From contig CASDSK010000038.1 of the NCBI GenBank assembly GCA_949283525.1, positions 30,970 to 94,969 of the forward strand: a DNA stretch of 64,000 bases. Reading direction: 5' to 3'. Positions 12,939 through 64,000 of the stretch are shown here, one piece after another. Position 1 is the first letter of the stretch. Each line of letters opens with the position of its first letter. The translations under genes and the position numbers were made by a program. The notes beneath the pieces were generated by a model. It was not told where the DNA came from, did not search any database, and worked only from the letters and a program-made list of their open reading frames with translations. The stretch is from an uncultured Eubacteriales bacterium (GTDB taxonomy: Bacteria > Bacillota > Clostridia > Christensenellales > UBA1242).

Positions 12939-13457
12939 ATGAATATAAAATATGTACCAAATATTTTAAGTTTTATTAGGCTACTATTAGTTCCTTTTTT
13001 TATAGTATCATTTTTTTTGATAAATAAATATTTAGCACTTGCGATTTTTATCATAGCGTCAATAACTGATTTAATAGATGGTTATATTGCCCGTAATTAT
13101 AACGCTGTTACTGAATTTGGAAAAGTATTAGACCCTTTCGCTGATAAATTTATGAAAATATCGGCTTTAATTTGTTTGACTTTTGCTGATTTAATTCCAT
13201 TATGGATAACAATTATAATGGTAGTATGTGATTTAGCAATGATAATTAGCGGTATATGTTTATACAAAAAAAATATAACAATACAAAGTAATTGGATAGG
13301 TAAATTAGGGACTTTAATAATAAGCTTAGGTGTAATTCTTAGTTTTTTTACAGAATGGATAGGCAACGCTAACATATATGTAATTTACGCTGGAATAATT
13401 ACGGCAATAATTGCTGGTTTAAATTATGTTTATATTTTCTTTACAAAAAAAAAATAA
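12939..13457 (+). CDS. pgsA: CDP-diacylglycerol--glycerol-3-phosphate 3-phosphatidyltransferase
   Basis: CDP-alcohol phosphatidyltransferase motif DLIDGYIARNYNAVTEFGKVLDPFADK. Four TM helices. Confidence 0.85.
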   Translation: MNIKYVPNILSFIRLLLVPFFIVSFFLINKYLALAIFIIASITDLIDGYIARNYNAVTEFGKVLDPFADKFMKISALICLTFADLIPLWITIIMVVCDLAMIISGICLYKKNITIQSNWIGKLGTLIISLGVILSFFTEWIGNANIYVIYAGIITAIIAGLNYVYIFFTKKK

Positions 13458-13869: not shown

Positions 13870-13945
13870 GCTCTCATCGTCTAGTGGTCTAGGACGCTAG
13901 CCTCTCACGCTGGTAACACGGGTTCAAATCCCGTTGAGAGTACCA
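13870..13945 (+). tRNA. tRNA-Glu (anticodon CUC), CCA encoded
   Basis: Cloverleaf folded by hand: acceptor GCUCUCA/UGAGAGU (G1-U72 wobble), D arm GUCUAGUGGUCUAGGAC, anticodon stem CUAGC/GCUGG with loop CUCUCAC, T arm ACGGGUUCAAAUCCCGU. Confidence 0.9.
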
Positions 13946-13955
13946 TTTTAACTAT

Positions 13956-13988
13956 AAAAATGTCTTTTTGAGTAAAGACATTTTTTTT
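13956..13988 (+). terminator. intrinsic terminator after tRNA-Glu
   Basis: AAAAATGTCTTT-loop-AAAGACATTTTT followed by a T-run. Confidence 0.7.
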
Positions 13989-14041
13989 ACAAAAAATTTG
14001 CAATTATTTTTCGTTCATATTATATTTAGTTAGAGGATAAA

Positions 14042-14704
14042 ATGTATAAAGATGTAAAAATAAAAATTTGTGGAATAAAAAATAAAGAGGATGCACTCTT
14101 ATGTGTAAATAACGGCGCAAATGCAATAGAAATGCTTGTTGGGCAAAAACACTTTAGTACAGATTTTATTTCTAAAGAAATTGCAAAAGAAATTGTTGAT
14201 GTCTTACCACCCTTTTGTAGCAGTGTTATAGTTACTCATAGCGAAGTTGCTGACGAAATTATATCAATTTGTAAATTTGTAAATAACACAACAATTCAGT
14301 TGCATTCTATAATTAACGAAGATGAAGTTAAAAAAATTAAAGAATCGTTGCCATATATCAAACTTATAAGACTAATTCATATTTTACGTGATGGTGATAT
14401 TATAACAGACTATAAATCAATGAAATATGCAGATGCATATTTATTAGATAGTTTTAATCTAAAAACAAACCAAGTAGGCGGAACTGGACTAACTCACAAT
14501 TGGAATTCTAGCAAAAATTTAATACAAGAATTAAACAAACCAGTAATTCTTGCTGGGGGCTTAAACCCTTATAATATTGTTGATGCTATAAATATAGTCA
14601 ATCCTTGAGGTGTTGATGTCAATACTGGACTTAAAGCACAAAATGGCCTTGAAGATTATAAAGCAGTTGTAAAATTTATTAATAATATTAAAAATACAAA
14701 ATAA
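14042..14704 (+). pseudogene. trpF: TrpF-like phosphoribosylanthranilate isomerase interrupted by in-frame TGA (14606-14608); either a pseudogene or a recoded/read-through CDS
   Basis: VKIKICGI...EDA...LPPF...QLH...GGTG..W..ILAGGLNP.N matches PRAI. After the TGA the frame stays open for 31 codons (GVDVNTGLK...FINNIKNTK) and matches the conserved VDVSSGVE C-terminal segment. Confidence 0.75.
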
Positions 14705-16719: not shown

Positions 16720-17070
16720 TTAAACTTTGACGCCCATTATATTTACGTTTATAGATTCTACAATCATACCTGTAAAATCTTCAACATTATACTTCACAGA
16801 TTTTTTTAAACTGTCGGCAACAGCATTGATTGAAACGCCATATTTTAATATTACACTCAAATCTAATAAAATCTTATTATCGTGTGTAGTAACTTTAACT
16901 CCACGTTTGTAATTTCTTTTTTTGAATAACTCTGCTAAATTATCAGTAAGACGTCTTGGAACTAAATCTACAACGCCATAGCATTCCAAAGCAAAATATC
17001 CTGCTACATTTGCTATTGCTTCATCACTGATAGTTATTCTCCCATTTTTATTTGATGTATGTACTGCCAT
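16720..17070 (-). CDS. yloU: Asp23/Gls24-family protein
   Basis: ISDEAIANVAGYFALECYGVV is typical of Asp23. Synteny with yloV. Confidence 0.8.
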   Translation of the reverse strand: MAVHTSNKNGRITISDEAIANVAGYFALECYGVVDLVPRRLTDNLAELFKKRNYKRGVKVTTHDNKILLDLSVILKYGVSINAVADSLKKSVKYNVEDFTGMIVESINVNIMGVKV

Positions 17071-17305
17071 TGCAATCTCCTACTTTTAGCTGTAAATCGA
17101 CATTGATATTGTACTATATATTCAAAAAAAAATCAACCATATTTATAAATTTTATAAATAGATTTATAAAAATACTTGATTTTTTTTGTATTTTATTGTA
17201 TCATATACGAGTATGAAAACAATTGTTTAATATTTATGCAATTCTACATTTATATTTTATACAAATGTTTATAGAATATTACAAAATTTTATTGGAGGTG
17301 TTATT

Positions 17306-17748: not shown

Positions 17749-19440
17749 TTATTTTTTAACTATATCCACTCCCCCATTATTACCATTTACTAAAATCCTA
17801 TCGTATTTTGCCAATTCCAAAAGATTATCTTCACCAATACCTGTAACACATGGTAGTCCAAGTTCTCTAGCAATTATAGCTGTATGACAAAGAAAGCCAC
17901 CTTCAGCCGTTACAATTGCTTTAGCTTCTATCATCGCATCAACCCAATCGGGATCAGTATAATAAGTTAATAAAATAGAACCTTTTTTAAATAAATTTAT
18001 TTCATTAGAGTCTTCTAAAAAACAAACATTTCCTTCTACAATACCTTTTGATGCAGGAGTGCCAACTATTTGAGATTTCACATTTTTCGACTCTTTTGCA
18101 ATTATTTTAGTTACGGGGCGATATTGAAGCATATAAAATTTATCATCTTTAATACACCACTCAAAATCACAAATTGCACCTAATGTTTTTTGGTGTTTCT
18201 TCAAAATATCACCTACTAATTTGCCCTTAAATTTAATCCCGTCAACCTTTTGATTAAGTTCAAATTCTTCTGATATAGGAGTTACTTTTCCAGATACTAA
18301 CTTTTCACCACCACCATTAACCCATTCTAAAATCCCAGTTTTTTTACTTTTACCAAGCCAAACACCTGAAATATCCGCATCTATAAATTCTTGTATGACA
18401 ACTGACATATTAGGATGTTTTAATCCAAACTTTGAAATGTATGACTTTACTCTAGAGCAGTTACACGATTCTTTAACTTTCTTTATTGAATCAAGAATAT
18501 CTTCTTTTTTAATACCAATAACAGACAAGAAAAGTCCTGCAAACGAATTATTTTTACTATCCTCACAATTAGCAGAACTTCTAACTGCAAATTTCATATC
18601 GCTTGGTAGTAAAGATAACTTTTCTTTATGCAATTTATTATTTATTGGCAAAATATAAGTTTGAGGAATCATTATATCTTTACTTCTAAGCATTGCTAAG
18701 CCATAATTTTTACCACCAATAATGGATGGTAGTTCATTAATACCAACATCTATAAATTCAGCAATAGTATCAACATTAATGATGCCATTTTGTTCTATTA
18801 ATGTTAACGCTAACATTTCTCTAGCATTTATTTTACTTTCTGGAAATTTAGTTAAAAAAAATTTTACAAATTTATCCCTGCATTTTGAAAACACTGGATA
18901 CAATTTATTATTATGATAAATATTTTGGTTATCCTGCCATTTTTTTAACATTAAATATTTTGTTACAGTCATATTATCGATATTAATATCACTAGCATTT
19001 CCCTTAAAATTTGTAAGAGATGAAGGAAAAATTTTGTCTAATTCTTCTATTTTTTGCAAATAATCAACGCCATAGATTTTACAAAGTTCTTTAGGCATTT
19101 CTTCACTATAAGTAGAACCTTCAGTAATAACTTCTCCTATCCCGTAATATGCATATGCCTCTCTAGCTAATCTCCATGCCAAAATAGTGTCCTTCTCAGC
19201 TTTAGCTTTATTAATATTCTTTATGCTTGCCTTTCTTATAAATGACAAATATTTATTTACGCTAAAGGCATCAGGTTTTTTATCAAAAAATTCAATTGTT
19301 TCATTAACAATTTTTGCAACATTTTTATTTAATAAACTATCAAATAAAATCGTTTCTCGCCATTGTTTGTCTAATACAAAATTATTAAATTTTTGTTTAA
19401 AAATTTTATATTCTTCCCACTTTATATTTTCAAAATACAT
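17749..19440 (-). CDS. PEP-utilising-enzyme-family phosphotransferase: unknown N-terminal domain, ATP-grasp (PPDK_N-like) domain and swivel phosphohistidine domain; no PEP/pyruvate TIM-barrel domain
   Basis: VRSSANCEDSKNNSFAGLF (ATP-grasp). TDPDWVDAMIEAKAIVTAEGGFLCHTAIIARELGLPCVTG (mobile His domain). The first ~235 aa were not recognised. Confidence 0.7.
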   Translation of the reverse strand: MYFENIKWEEYKIFKQKFNNFVLDKQWRETILFDSLLNKNVAKIVNETIEFFDKKPDAFSVNKYLSFIRKASIKNINKAKAEKDTILAWRLAREAYAYYGIGEVITEGSTYSEEMPKELCKIYGVDYLQKIEELDKIFPSSLTNFKGNASDINIDNMTVTKYLMLKKWQDNQNIYHNNKLYPVFSKCRDKFVKFFLTKFPESKINAREMLALTLIEQNGIINVDTIAEFIDVGINELPSIIGGKNYGLAMLRSKDIMIPQTYILPINNKLHKEKLSLLPSDMKFAVRSSANCEDSKNNSFAGLFLSVIGIKKEDILDSIKKVKESCNCSRVKSYISKFGLKHPNMSVVIQEFIDADISGVWLGKSKKTGILEWVNGGGEKLVSGKVTPISEEFELNQKVDGIKFKGKLVGDILKKHQKTLGAICDFEWCIKDDKFYMLQYRPVTKIIAKESKNVKSQIVGTPASKGIVEGNVCFLEDSNEINLFKKGSILLTYYTDPDWVDAMIEAKAIVTAEGGFLCHTAIIARELGLPCVTGIGEDNLLELAKYDRILVNGNNGGVDIVKK

Positions 19441-29801: not shown

Positions 29802-32057
29802 TCAAATAAGTGTGAGTGGTGACACATTAAAAGTTAAATTTTTAACGCCAACATCTTCAAACTCTACGCTAATTAAATTTGCTGATTGCAATTTGGATGT
29901 GTCTATAATAACACCTACTCCAAATTTCGGGTGTTCCACCTTAGCCCCCACAACAAAACCATCAAATGACTTGTCTTCCATATTATAAGCCATAGTTTGA
30001 ATTATTGATTTTATAAAATTATTTTCTTGATTTACACTTCTATAAGTAGAATTAGAATTTTGATTATAATTATTATTAGCAAAATTATAAGATTTATCAA
30101 GGTTATAACCTAGATTAAAATATACTTTTTTGATATTACGATTATCTTTAAGTTCATTAAGAAATCTAGAAGTAATAAAACGTTTGATTTGCCCAAACTT
30201 GAATCTACTTTCGCATCTAGATAAATATAACCTTTCTTTTGCTCTTGTTACTGCGACATAAAAAAGTCTTCGCTCTTCTTCTATGTCATCAATCTCATTA
30301 TTACGCAAAATTGGAAAATTTTCTTCCTCTAACCCAACGACAAAAACAGCCCTAAATTCCAATCCTTTAACGGCGTGAATTGTAGCCAAAATAACAGTAT
30401 TATTAGCATCATCTTTGTCATCTGCATCGCTCAAAAGCGTAATAGCTTGTAAATATTCAAATAATGTATCATTAGGATAAGTCTTTGAATAAGCGTAAAT
30501 AGATGTTACTAACGATTCAATATTCTTTATTCTATTCGCATCTTCTTCAGTATTTTTATCTGCATACATTTCACGAATTTTAGTTTTCTCAATAACTTTT
30601 TCAACAGTTTCTACTAATGAACTTGTTTCTGCATATTGTTGTAGTTCTATTATCAATTCTTTGAAATGAATTATCTTTGTTTTTAACGCATTAGTTAAAT
30701 TATCCGAGTGTTCCATAATATACTCAAGCATACTTAAGTTATGTTCATCAGCCATACTCTTTAAATTATTAATTGATGTTTGACCTATTCCCCTTTTTGG
30801 AAAATTGATAATTCTTATAAGGCTTTCATTGTCTTGATGATTAACTATTACTTTCAAATACGCTAAAATATTTTTTATCTCTGCTCTTTCATAGAACTTC
30901 ATACCACCCAAAACTTTGTATGGAATGTTTGCAGTCAAAAGACTTTCTTCTATAGGTCTACTTAATGCATTATATCTCATTAGTACGGCAATGTCTTTAT
31001 ATTGATAACCTTCACTAACTAACTGTTTAATTCTTCTTGAAATAAATTCTGCTTCCTGAACATCATTTGCACCAACAAATAATTCAATAGGTGCTCCGTC
31101 TTGATTATTAGTAAAAAGAACTTTATCCAAACGCTGTTCATTATTTTTGATTACACAGTTAGCAATGTCAATAATACTTTTGGTACAACGATAATTTTGT
31201 TCTAACTTATAAATTTTAACATTATTAAAATCATATTGAAAATTTAGTATATTTTCAATATTAGCACCACGCCAACCATATATACACTGGTCTTCATCTC
31301 CTACCACCATTATATTCCCATATTTTGAAGATAATATTTTGGCAATATCATATTGTACTTTGTTAGTATCTTGAAATTCATCAATTAAAATGTACTGAAA
31401 TCTATCTTGAAATTTTTCTCTCGCTTCTTGGCAATTCAAAAGCAATTCATACGTTTTGATTAATAAATCGTCAAAATCAAAAGCATTACTAACAAAAAGT
31501 TCTTTTTGATATTGCTCATAGACCTTACAAATATTGTCAATATCTTGTACAAAAGCATATTCTTTCTTATATTCTTCAACAGATAAATTTTGATTTTTGG
31601 CGTTACTAATATGATAAACAAAAGTTTTTTTCTTGTCTTCATCAATATTTAATTCGACCAAAATTCGTTTGACAATATTTTCCTTCTCTTGTTCTCCATA
31701 AATAGAGAAACTTTTGGAAAACCCTATTCTGTCAGCAAATTGTCTTAAAATTCGAACACATAGTGAATGGAAAGTACATATCCACATATCCTGAGTGTTT
31801 TCCACTAATTGTTCGACACGTTCCTTCATTTCTTGTGCTGCCTTGTTTGTAAAAGTTATAGCCAAAATATTATAAGGTGAAACACCTTGACTAATCAAAT
31901 ATGCTACTCTATGCGTCAAAACTCTAGTTTTACCACTTCCAGCACCAGCAGTTACCAAAACTGCACCTTCTGTTTGTAAAACTATTTTTCTCTGTTGTTC
32001 ATTTAAAGTATTAATTAAATCTAATTTATCCATAGCGTTATTATAACACAATTTCAT
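29802..32057 (-). CDS. pcrA: ATP-dependent DNA helicase PcrA (UvrD family); the true start may be the ATG at 32033
   Basis: AGAGSGKTRVLTHR, DEFQDT, and a C-terminal Tudor-like GAKVEHPKFGVGVI segment. Ends TGA-TAG. Confidence 0.9.
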   Translation of the reverse strand: MKLCYNNAMDKLDLINTLNEQQRKIVLQTEGAVLVTAGAGSGKTRVLTHRVAYLISQGVSPYNILAITFTNKAAQEMKERVEQLVENTQDMWICTFHSLCVRILRQFADRIGFSKSFSIYGEQEKENIVKRILVELNIDEDKKKTFVYHISNAKNQNLSVEEYKKEYAFVQDIDNICKVYEQYQKELFVSNAFDFDDLLIKTYELLLNCQEAREKFQDRFQYILIDEFQDTNKVQYDIAKILSSKYGNIMVVGDEDQCIYGWRGANIENILNFQYDFNNVKIYKLEQNYRCTKSIIDIANCVIKNNEQRLDKVLFTNNQDGAPIELFVGANDVQEAEFISRRIKQLVSEGYQYKDIAVLMRYNALSRPIEESLLTANIPYKVLGGMKFYERAEIKNILAYLKVIVNHQDNESLIRIINFPKRGIGQTSINNLKSMADEHNLSMLEYIMEHSDNLTNALKTKIIHFKELIIELQQYAETSSLVETVEKVIEKTKIREMYADKNTEEDANRIKNIESLVTSIYAYSKTYPNDTLFEYLQAITLLSDADDKDDANNTVILATIHAVKGLEFRAVFVVGLEEENFPILRNNEIDDIEEERRLFYVAVTRAKERLYLSRCESRFKFGQIKRFITSRFLNELKDNRNIKKVYFNLGYNLDKSYNFANNNYNQNSNSTYRSVNQENNFIKSIIQTMAYNMEDKSFDGFVVGAKVEHPKFGVGVIIDTSKLQSANLISVEFEDVGVKNLTFNVSPLTLI

Positions 32058-32079: not shown

Positions 32080-32490
32080 CTAATAAGCTATGTCAAATTC
32101 TTTTTTGTGCTCATTATCGTATCTTTCTTTAAGTTTTACGTATTGTTCAGATAATTTTAATATGTAAGATTGTTTAGCATTTTCATTTAATTTATCATAA
32201 ATATCGTGATTAATTAATTTTGATAAAGGATTAAGCAAAACTTCATTGGAACTCATAATTTCACAAACTTTTTTGTACATAATATCTTCTTCAGACAAAT
32301 CATTTGTTTTATTCATTTCTCGTATTTTATTGATAATTCTTCTTTTGCAAAATTCATTAACAACCTTGATATCTTGACCATTTTTTGTAGCATTTTCAAT
32401 AATATTTCTTCTTTCTATAATAATATCATTCCAAAAACCTTTACGCAATCTAGTTCTTGCCTCTTTGGCTTCTTTTCTAAACTCATCCAT
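32080..32490 (-). CDS. hypothetical helical protein (136 aa from the RBS-supported ATG)
   Basis: ATG (MDEFRKEAKE...) preceded by GGAGGG. The track ORF extends to 32592. Confidence 0.45.
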   Translation of the reverse strand: MDEFRKEAKEARTRLRKGFWNDIIIERRNIIENATKNGQDIKVVNEFCKRRIINKIREMNKTNDLSEEDIMYKKVCEIMSSNEVLLNPLSKLINHDIYDKLNENAKQSYILKLSEQYVKLKERYDNEHKKEFDIAY

Positions 32491-32674
32491 AATTCCCTCC
32501 ATAACGTAATTAATTTTAGCAATTAATTTATAAAAAACAAAATGATTTTTGCCAAAATTTGGCAATCGACAAAAATTCCCATAATACGACATAAGTTATG
32601 TTATATTAATACAAGTATAATAAAAAAAACTGTAGTTTAATCTACAGTTATAATAAAATCAAAAATATTAAATA

Positions 32675-45817: not shown

Positions 45818-46333
45818 ATGAAAAAATCAGGTTTGATAAGAAGAATAGATGAGTTAGGAAGAATTGTCATTCCAAAAGAAATAAGAAAAACATTACATAT
45901 TAAAGAAGGAACACCATTAGACATAATTGTTGAAAATGGCGAGTTAATAGTCCTAAAAAAATTTTCACCTATTAAAGAAATTGAAAACAACGCTTTTGTT
46001 TGTGCCGAAATTTTATATGATGAACTACAACAACCAGTTATAATAACTGACTTAGATAAAACTGTAGTTTCAGTAGGTTTAAAAATTAATCACGATAAAC
46101 TTAATCCCAAAATTATAAAATTATTTAATAATAGAAAATTACAAATAATAGAAAACTTTAATGATATAATTGTCGAAAACGAAACAACATCTCATAAAAA
46201 TATTATAATTTCTCCAATTATAATAGAAGGCGATATCTTAGGTAGTATCATTGTTGACTACAAAATTTTAGATAATACAGCGTTATCGAATATTAGACTT
46301 TGTACAAACTTAATTTCTAAATTAGCATATTAA
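45818..46333 (+). CDS. spoVT: stage V sporulation regulator SpoVT (AbrB-type N-terminal domain plus GAF-like C-terminal domain)
   Basis: GLIRRIDELGRIVIPKEIRKTLHIKEGTPLDIIV, 171 aa. Confidence 0.8.
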   Translation: MKKSGLIRRIDELGRIVIPKEIRKTLHIKEGTPLDIIVENGELIVLKKFSPIKEIENNAFVCAEILYDELQQPVIITDLDKTVVSVGLKINHDKLNPKIIKLFNNRKLQIIENFNDIIVENETTSHKNIIISPIIIEGDILGSIIVDYKILDNTALSNIRLCTNLISKLAY

Positions 46334-60105: not shown

Positions 60106-60342
60106 TTATATTTCATCATTATTATTTAAAGATTGATTGTTATTTTCTTGATTTGTTAATTCATTATATTCTTTATTTAAAATTTCAATTTTTCCTTTGG
60201 CATCATTTAATATACTATAACATTCTTTGCAGTCTTTCATAGCTTGCTCATATAATTTAACAGACTCATCAAGTGAAATATTTCCACTTTCTATTTTTTG
60301 TGTTATCTGTTCAATATTTTTTAATAGTTCTTCAAAATTCAT
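60106..60342 (-). CDS. xseB: exodeoxyribonuclease VII small subunit
   Basis: FEELLKNIEQITQKIESGNISLDESVKLYEQ. ATGA overlap with xseA. Confidence 0.8.
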   Translation of the reverse strand: MNFEELLKNIEQITQKIESGNISLDESVKLYEQAMKDCKECYSILNDAKGKIEILNKEYNELTNQENNNQSLNNNDEI

Positions 60343-62855: not shown

Positions 62856-64000
62856 GTGGATTTTATTATTATAGATGGTAATTCTCTTGCAAATAGAGCA
62901 TTTTATGCGATGCCACCATTAAAAAACAAAAACGGATTAGTATGTAATGCAATTTTTGGTTTTTGTAATATTTTAGTTAAATTAATAACAGAAAATAAAC
63001 CTAAATATTTAGCAGTTGCGTTTGATATGCACGCACCTACTTTTAGGCATCAACTATACCCTGAATATAAAGCTGGCAGAAATGCTATGCCTGAAGATTT
63101 GCTTGAACAAATGCCACTTATTCAAGAATTACTAAAGAAAATGAATATTCAAGTAATTATGAAAGAAGGAATTGAAGCAGATGACATAATAGGAACATTA
63201 ACAAAAAGGTTTAATGTTTCTAGTGTTATTGTATCTGGAGATAAAGATTTATTACAACTTATTGATGATAACACAACTGTATGGCTAACAAAAAAAGGCA
63301 TAAGTGAAATAGAAATATTTGATAATAGTCATTTCCAAGATATTTACGACTTTGAGCCCAAGAAAATAATAGATTTGAAGGCTATGATGGGTGACAATAG
63401 TGATAATATACCGGGTATAAATGGCGTTGGCGAAAAAACGGCTATGGAATTTATGCACCAATTTGGCTCACTTGACCAATTATACAATAATATAGACAAA
63501 CTAACGGGTGCTAAACAAAAAAAAGTCATAGAATCTAAAGATATGGCTTACTTAAGTTATGACTTAGCAAAAATTAATATCAATGCAGATATTGAATGTG
63601 ATTTAAGTTCCTTAACTTATGATTTTCCATTTGACGATGAAGTTAAAAATAAATTTAATGAATACGAATTTTCTTCATTATTAAAACGAGATATTTTTAT
63701 GTCCAATTCACAAACCAAAAATGAAGCCTTACAGCAATGCGATATTATTGAAATAACTAGCGTTAAACAATTAGATGAAATTTTAACAAAAATACAAAAC
63801 CCTAAAAGATTTTGTATGCATTATGAGAAATATTATGATGAATTTCATTTTGCTTTTGATACAAACACAAATTATTATTTTATTACAAATAAAGTTAAAG
63901 ATGACACTAATAAATTAATTGAAAAATTAATGCCTTATGCCATTAACAAAAATATTAATCAATGCTATTTTAAATATAAAAGGTTAAAACATTATTTGAG
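62856..64000 (+). CDS. polA: DNA polymerase I (partial; 5'-3' exonuclease domain and beginning of the next domain; GTG start)
   Basis: Open frame to the window edge, not in the ORF track. IIDGNSLANRAFYA, YKAGR, EADDIIGT, GDKDLLQL, GDNSDNIPGINGVGEKTA. GAGG RBS. Confidence 0.9.
   Translation, partial: MDFIIIDGNSLANRAFYAMPPLKNKNGLVCNAIFGFCNILVKLITENKPKYLAVAFDMHAPTFRHQLYPEYKAGRNAMPEDLLEQMPLIQELLKKMNIQVIMKEGIEADDIIGTLTKRFNVSSVIVSGDKDLLQLIDDNTTVWLTKKGISEIEIFDNSHFQDIYDFEPKKIIDLKAMMGDNSDNIPGINGVGEKTAMEFMHQFGSLDQLYNNIDKLTGAKQKKVIESKDMAYLSYDLAKININADIECDLSSLTYDFPFDDEVKNKFNEYEFSSLLKRDIFMSNSQTKNEALQQCDIIEITSVKQLDEILTKIQNPKRFCMHYEKYYDEFHFAFDTNTNYYFITNKVKDDTNKLIEKLMPYAINKNINQCYFKYKRLKHYL

Follow-up and report, generated by a model that had tools for sequence, protein, structure and literature searches.

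The closest described relatives of the gene considered here are the TrpF proteins (Pfam family PF00697, PRAI), among them the enzyme of Thermotoga maritima (PDB 1LBM and 1NSJ), in which we take Cys7 and Asp126 to be the catalytic residues. For a bacterial gene of this kind that is interrupted by TGA, the described systems that offer themselves for comparison are the young nonsense pseudogenes of bacterial accessory genes, the near-cognate reading of UGA by tRNA-Trp, and the reassignment of UGA to Trp in code 4 (Mycoplasmatales and some reduced endosymbionts). UGA is the leakiest of the stop codons and is misread by tRNA-Trp in Escherichia coli and Bacillus subtilis (PMC5289835), and bacterial variants of tRNA-Trp(CCA) in which the anticodon stem has 4 bp read UGA and are linked to a lower usage of UGA as a stop (PMC13092985). 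Reassignment of UGA to Trp within Bacillota has been reported by GTDB-based surveys for Mycoplasmatales only.

Here, we describe a TrpF-like gene with an in-frame TGA that lies in a 64-kb stretch of DNA (hereafter ‘the window’, meaning the whole stretch that was analysed) with a G+C content of 27.8%. The gene belongs to the PRAI/TrpF family of (beta-alpha)8 barrels, stands alone and is accessory. We consider it likely that the TGA is a recent TGG-to-TGA nonsense allele of this accessory gene in an organism that uses the standard code, and that the product is truncated and probably inactive.

Layout, family and genomic neighbourhood of the TrpF-like gene

Read directly from the letters, the open reading frame (ORF) begins with ATG at 14042 and meets TGA at 14606–14608, its codon 189, after 188 sense codons. 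As the original prediction had stated, the same frame then runs on for 31 sense codons (GVDVNTGLKAQNGLEDYKAVVKFINNIKNTK) to a TAA at 14702–14704. The features of the locus are:

13870–13945, plus strand: tRNA-Glu (CTC), 96 nt upstream of the TrpF-like gene and on the same strand
13998–14026, plus strand: promoter-like site of the TrpF-like gene (TTGCAA, 17 nt, TATATT), from a consensus scan only
14032–14037, plus strand: putative Shine-Dalgarno sequence AGAGGA, 4 bases upstream of the ATG at 14042, read from the sequence
14042–14608, plus strand: TrpF-like ORF under the standard code, 188 codons and TGA, spanning beta1 to alpha7 and containing the putative catalytic residues Cys10 (in KICG) and Asp136 (in LLDS), placed by the 1LBM alignment
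14606–14608, plus strand: in-frame TGA, codon 189, in the context AAT CCT TGA GGT
14609–14704, plus strand: post-TGA segment, 31 sense codons and TAA, with beta8, alpha8 and the C-terminal GVDVN(S/T)G phosphate-binding segment

The expression signals of the gene, as predicted by consensus scan and by reading, look intact. On the 3′ side of the tRNA-Glu gene, a perfect 12-bp AT-rich hairpin (13956–13985) followed by a run of T can be read from the sequence; the terminator scan did not return it because it holds too few G-C pairs. Directly 3′ of the TGA lies a cluster of GTG, TTG and ATG triplets, all in the +1 frame. None of these three triplets occurs in frame within the 31 post-TGA codons, for which reason a two-piece enzyme produced by internal restart was rejected, as was a frameshift, since the homology continues in frame 0 past the TGA.

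The PRAI-like family comprises 1054 proteins at E ≤ 1e-5, with a length of about 216 residues among the matches listed, and an alignment of 32 of its sequences contains 53 invariant columns. Asp136 is invariant and Cys10 nearly invariant in the subfamily, and both align with the catalytic positions of 1LBM. The likeness to TrpF includes a near-full profile match, a barrel model and the catalytic Cys and Asp, together with the C-terminal segment, in which G-VDV-N(S/T)-G of the window protein corresponds to AVDVSSG of TrpF. Unlike TrpF, the PRAI-like subfamily has invariant motifs of its own (LVGQ-H-S-DF and IQLHS) and stands alone in the metagenome-assembled genomes (MAGs) of gut Firmicutes, trp genes having been found neither in the 64-kb window nor beside the homologues; the window copy differs further in being interrupted by TGA. 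All NCBIfam TrpF equivalogs remain below their cut-offs, the best of them being NF002298 (139 bits versus 215). From these low equivalog scores, the separate motifs and the stand-alone context, it follows that the substrate may not be phosphoribosylanthranilate and that the family may act on another phosphoribosyl compound.

An arrangement of a NUDIX gene, the PRAI-like gene and a HAD hydrolase gene recurs in about 10 of 58 loci (L066 7399–9285, L067, L068, L003 and L011 among them), too few for it to be accepted as a defining cassette. In L066 and L067, this set lies between TnpV/serine-recombinase units, and some PRAI-like genes adjoin recombinases or have NUDIX and/or HAD hydrolase genes at their flanks. 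In two loci, a TIR-domain protein is encoded directly upstream, and in L061 (7307–10737) a PfkB kinase follows; L063 (5051–9285) is a further locus of this set of neighbourhoods. In five unrelated loci, the PRAI-like gene is preceded, at a distance of 36–96 nt, by a solitary tRNA gene of the same strand: tRNA-Glu-CTC in the window (13870–14042), tRNA-Arg-TCG in three loci and tRNA-Ser-CGA in one (L062 9856–10001, L022 9888–10001, L028 6559–6675 and L059 9849–10001). Such adjacency is far above chance and could reflect co-transcription or tRNA-linked insertion. The gene had originally been described as a possibly decaying stand-alone trpF next to a tRNA; it does stand alone and it does adjoin a tRNA, but because both are common features of the PRAI-like family, neither is a sign of decay.

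In the sister species (GatB 86% identical), no TrpF-like gene follows fakA, and a Mur ligase gene and spoVG are found there; synteny between the window and this species ends at about 14983. The only TrpF-like proteins above 62% identity in a collection of 15 billion proteins are this species’ own copies. A second accessory insertion in the neighbourhood is the gene at 17749–19440 (minus strand), between rpe and rpmB, which is without a counterpart in the sister species; it encodes a 563-aa relative of PEP-utilising enzymes that matches parts of the PEP synthase and rifampicin phosphotransferase models. Separately, a match to Rfam family RF03531 (a Clostridioides difficile sRNA ‘included into helicase gene’; 70.4 bits, 30209–30308, minus strand) lies inside pcrA and most likely reflects conserved pcrA coding sequence, not a separate RNA gene.

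Conservation of the sequence after the TGA

The PRAI profile PF00697 matches the 188-aa product with 69.0 bits over positions 1–164 of 193, and the product with the post-TGA extension with 91.3 bits over positions 1–192 (a gain of 22 bits; the cut-off is 22.7). The extension of 14042–14704 thus runs almost to the end of the profile, and the homologues do not end at the TGA column: all homologues of about 216 aa span the segment behind it. Residues 5–217 of the window gene align to residues 2–203 of T. maritima TrpF (1LBM) with E = 1.4e-27, and the residue opposite the TGA is the Phe in ‘VRPFAVDVSSGVE’. In the alignment of 32 family sequences, each of the six columns that are invariant behind the TGA (V191, D192, N194, G196, F212 and K217) is kept in the window copy, as are 13 of the 17 near-invariant ones; before the TGA, the copy keeps 45 of 49 invariant and 78 of 87 near-invariant columns. 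The intact homologue P0002 has the same before-and-after profile. By these alignments, the post-TGA segment is homologous to the PRAI family and not a chance match, and the original reading of the peptide as the conserved PRAI C-terminus is borne out.

An AlphaFold2 model of the window protein, for which 32 family members served as input, has a pLDDT of 90.9 and a pTM of 0.88 and consists of alternating strands and helices in a (beta-alpha)8 barrel. Strand beta8 (residues 190–193) and helix alpha8 (residues 206–217) both lie past codon 189 in this model, so that a protein ending there would lose its C-terminal segment, as had been expected.

At the TGA column itself, all of the 55 other family loci that were scored have a sense codon. 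The residue is Tyr (TAT or TAC) in 45 and occasionally Phe, His, Gly or Ala; Trp is limited to P0002, the closest homologue (62% identity), in which its codon is TGG. The column had been predicted to be aromatic and often Trp; in this subfamily it is mostly Tyr. The TGG of P0002 is one transition away from TGA, and the ancestral codon of the window gene was probably TGG as well.

Authenticity of the TGA and the genetic code of the host

The TGA is a real allele. The identical 188-aa product (P0001) is on record at both NCBI and ENA, and the MAG contig carries this TGA, as do ENA scaffold ERZ16268077:scaffold_29930 (L001) and the Logan assembly of ERR10610473 (L002), in the latter two of which the gene (window 14042–14704) occupies 2049–2711 and 349–1011. 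The strain in ERR10610473 differs from the window by one SNP, at 13373, which is seen in two contigs (L001 and L079). A sequencing or assembly error, with G as the true base and the gene intact, had been among the explanations first offered; in its favour, TGA is one base away from a sense codon here, and the sister species’ metagenome assemblies do contain single-site disruptions that may be errors. Because two distinguishable strains carry the TGA in independent assemblies, and as no TGG-encoded version of the window protein is on record, we regard such an error as highly improbable. A 220-aa protein with W at this position (P0121) is on record, but the underlying DNA (L001 and L002) carries TGA; P0121 has its W because gene callers applied code 4 to TGA-containing DNA. 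The annotation of the MAG gives the 188-aa P0001. It is through code 4 calling on short contigs that protein databases have come to hold an ‘intact’ sequence that is unsupported under code 11. The species is found in at least five samples, in three of which (ERR10610463, ERZ17292905 and ERZ16268251) the contigs end before codon 189. The TGA is accordingly seen in two nearly identical strains, the contigs of more diverged strains ending before that codon.

Within the window, the 47 long ORFs (17,344 codons) contain 70 TGG codons and no in-frame TGA, which agrees with the original statement that Trp is otherwise encoded by TGG, and the TGA of the TrpF-like gene is the only in-frame TGA in any credible window gene. 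Since the A-ending share of two-fold A/G codon pairs in these ORFs is 0.82, an established code with UGA as Trp should show mostly TGA. ORFs cover a fraction of 0.84 of the window in code 11 and of 0.85 in code 4, and 52 related loci likewise gain no coverage under code 4, none of them being code-4-like. No tRNA-Trp was found in the 64-kb window, which holds only tRNA-Glu(CTC) and tRNA-Leu(CAA), nor by a tRNA scan of 37 related loci; a release-factor GGQ motif (prfB) was likewise absent from the window. The credible window genes that end in TGA are, as had been noted, pcrA and xseA only (2 of about 64); two short doubtful ORFs, at 17052–17216 and 63149–63301, likewise end in TGA. The two credible cases served as comparators:

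29802–29804, minus strand: TGA stop of pcrA, immediately followed by TAG
60332–60334, minus strand: TGA stop of xseA, 12 residues past the end of the TIGR00237 match

XseA matches TIGR00237 up to position 387 of 389, and its homologues are 400–405 aa long. The TGA lies in an 11-nt overlap with the start of xseB (ATGAATTTTGA, 60332–60342, minus strand), and not in an ATGA overlap as originally given, a form that occurs in the sister species. Read in code 4, xseA would be extended by 25 residues, five of them Trp, and would run into xseB. A search with GatB found sister species at 79–87% identity, and one with XseA found the same species in another sample as well as sister species at 67–75%. In strain L076, which is about 1% diverged, the TGA stop of xseA stands at the same place with the same 11-nt overlap, and in the sister species (L073–L075) xseA ends with TGA in a 4-nt ATGA overlap with xseB, behind a different C-terminal sequence. 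The C-terminus of xseA is shifted between the species, with a TGA end in both. Because xseA ends at TGA across strains and species, TGA is a functional stop codon in this genus, and the earlier view that xseA is no strong test of TGA termination no longer holds.

Orthologues of window genes between 15 and 32 kb in sister-species loci (L069–L072) are without in-frame TGA, and aligned Trp codons are TGG in 37 of 37 cases. A single apparent in-frame TGA, in the sister orthologue of window 32080–32592, lies upstream of the true start and was dismissed. The TGA of pcrA aligns with GAA (Glu) of the sister species and is followed by TAG. As stop codons, TGA accounts for 1 of 30 in the sister-species loci, or about 3% in the genus, and for 76 of 777 long ORFs (about 10%) in the 52 related loci of the wider group; this depletion is modest and is not evidence of reassignment.

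A SpoVT/AbrB-like regulator is encoded at 45818–46333 (plus strand) of the window, and spoVG is present in the sister species (L070 19452–19736). Together with the cell-wall genes of the window (SLT, MurJ-like and polysaccharide deacetylase), which set it apart from mollicutes, these genes mark the host as a walled Firmicute and not a mollicute, despite a G+C content of 28% and the mollicute-style names of some related MAGs. The host is a low-GC, peptidoglycan-containing gut Firmicute of the poorly classified ‘Bacilli/Clostridia bacterium’ MAG group, and it uses the standard bacterial code.

Weighing the readings of codon 189 and their significance

Under the reading that we favour, a G-to-A transition would have changed TGG (Trp189) to TGA in this lineage, the ancestral TGG being deduced from P0002. 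Given the standard bacterial code, translation would in most cases stop at codon 189, and the 188-residue protein so released would be without beta8 and alpha8. Their loss would open the barrel and remove half of the phosphate-binding site, and the product is for this reason expected to be inactive. The event is probably recent, because the 31 codons behind the TGA have acquired neither a stop nor a frameshift and keep every invariant residue. At four columns that are otherwise invariant, the window copy also has changes of its own (D27N, G30E, L67S and I80V), of which two are non-conservative (G30E and L67S); they hint, weakly, at relaxed constraint along a long branch. A little full-length protein is possible through near-cognate reading of UGA by tRNA-Trp, although the data do not need it. 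The nonsense mutation that the original prediction had listed among its options is in this way supported by a real allele, a standard code and TGG in P0002.

Points that count against the nonsense reading are that no decay is detectable past the TGA, which can be explained by a very recent event or by translation that continues; that the allele is common to two strains from different samples and has hence persisted through some spread; and that the rarity of TGA stops in the genus is the background expected before a capture of UGA. With young nonsense pseudogenes in bacterial accessory genes, the locus shares one disabling substitution in an intact frame with intact-looking expression signals, the lack of the gene in the sister species and the occurrence of comparable single-site disruptions in related populations; nothing of substance sets it apart from them, the sharing of the allele by two strains alone deserving note. 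In contigs of the sister species, from different samples, such disruptions affect spoVG twice, once by a nonsense change (AAG to TAG) and once by the insertion of 1 nt, and fakA once, by a frameshift close to its 3′ end (L071 19430–19582, L069 19759–20044 and L072 11956–13580), and they are either common population variants or products of error-prone assemblies. Because single-site disruptions of conserved genes are frequent in the sister assemblies, a single nonsense allele among the roughly 65 genes of the window is nothing out of the ordinary.

The chief competitor holds that UGA189 is read at a low rate by normal tRNA-Trp (CCA) as a near-cognate codon, which would restore Trp in a gene that is still under selection; the position would tolerate Trp, and a low-demand accessory gene would need little of the full-length enzyme (NIVNPWGVDVNTG spans the stop). 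A Pro codon directly before UGA, as found here, is a poor termination context in E. coli. The fully conserved post-TGA segment, the intact look of the expression signals and the presence of the allele in two strains agree with such leakiness, and the inserted Trp would be the residue of the closest homologue, so that, as in the E. coli and B. subtilis systems, Trp would be placed where the ancestral codon most likely had it. Near-cognate reading is biologically plausible, since no stop codon is leakier than UGA and tRNA-Trp misreads it (PMC5289835), and the rarity of TGA stops in the genus recalls the tRNA-Trp(CCA) variants (PMC13092985). The window TGA, however, has no stimulatory context or structure that we could find: the predicted fold behind it is no more stable than that of shuffled sequence (z = +0.62), and the following base is G, whereas A favours misreading by tRNA-Trp (PMC5289835). 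The TGA is seen in the two nearly identical strains, the contigs of more diverged ones ending before the site; xseA in the same genus depends on TGA to terminate, and read-through at its usual rate, a few percent at most, would yield little enzyme. We therefore give the leaky stop a minor, though not trivial, probability. Insertion of selenocysteine at UGA189 likewise starts from an in-frame UGA with a conserved frame downstream, but no hairpin follows the UGA (minimum free energy −10.9 kcal/mol versus a shuffle mean of −12.5), no Rfam element was found behind it, and the family column is aromatic or small and never Cys. We know of no selenoprotein among TrpF enzymes. Because both RNA structure and Rfam element are missing past the TGA, we treat selenocysteine as excluded, its probability being next to nil.

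An early or ambiguous reassignment of UGA to Trp, in which TGA stops would have been purged, a UGA-reading tRNA-Trp would be present and the TGA of the TrpF-like gene would be among the first to be tolerated, could draw on the Trp that the closest homologue has in the column of the TGA, on the scarcity of TGA stops in the genus (about 3%, versus about 10% in the wider group), on the strong AT bias and on the immediate TAG that backs the TGA of pcrA. In its low G+C content, its in-frame TGA in the place of a relative’s Trp and its few TGA stops, this Bacillota genome resembles those with code 4. It differs in that the 70 other Trp codons counted in the window are all TGG in spite of the preference for A-ending codons, in that none of the sister-species orthologues has an in-frame TGA, and in that code 4 brings no gain in coding density. 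The TGA end of xseA in two strains and a sister species would, if read as Trp, produce an implausible Trp-rich tail over xseB; the TGA of pcrA replaces a Glu codon and not a Trp codon; and the GTDB-based surveys place UGA-to-Trp reassignment in Bacillota outside this group. Genome-wide decoding of UGA as Trp, which the original prediction had left as an option, is not supported, given the TGG counts, the sister orthologues and the conserved xseA stop, and an early or ambiguous form of it is very unlikely. There is a small chance that the genus is close to a capture of UGA, with UGA serving as a stop at xseA and being read as Trp often enough elsewhere, perhaps by an altered tRNA-Trp, for a TGG-to-TGA change in a conserved enzyme to be tolerated and to spread between hosts. 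If this were true, the genus would be a rare living intermediate of stop-to-Trp reassignment outside Mycoplasmatales.

The nonsense allele, to return to the favoured reading, is an event of a known and ordinary kind, a young broken and at most leaky gene, and one freshly disabled accessory gene in a MAG matters little as such. The case does provide a worked route for telling a nonsense allele from a code change by means of a 64-kb window and sister-species loci, and it illustrates how ‘intact’ W-containing proteins arise from TGA-containing DNA on short contigs when metagenome gene callers change to code 4. Separately, the stand-alone PRAI-like family is highly conserved in gut Firmicutes, with no trp genes found beside it.
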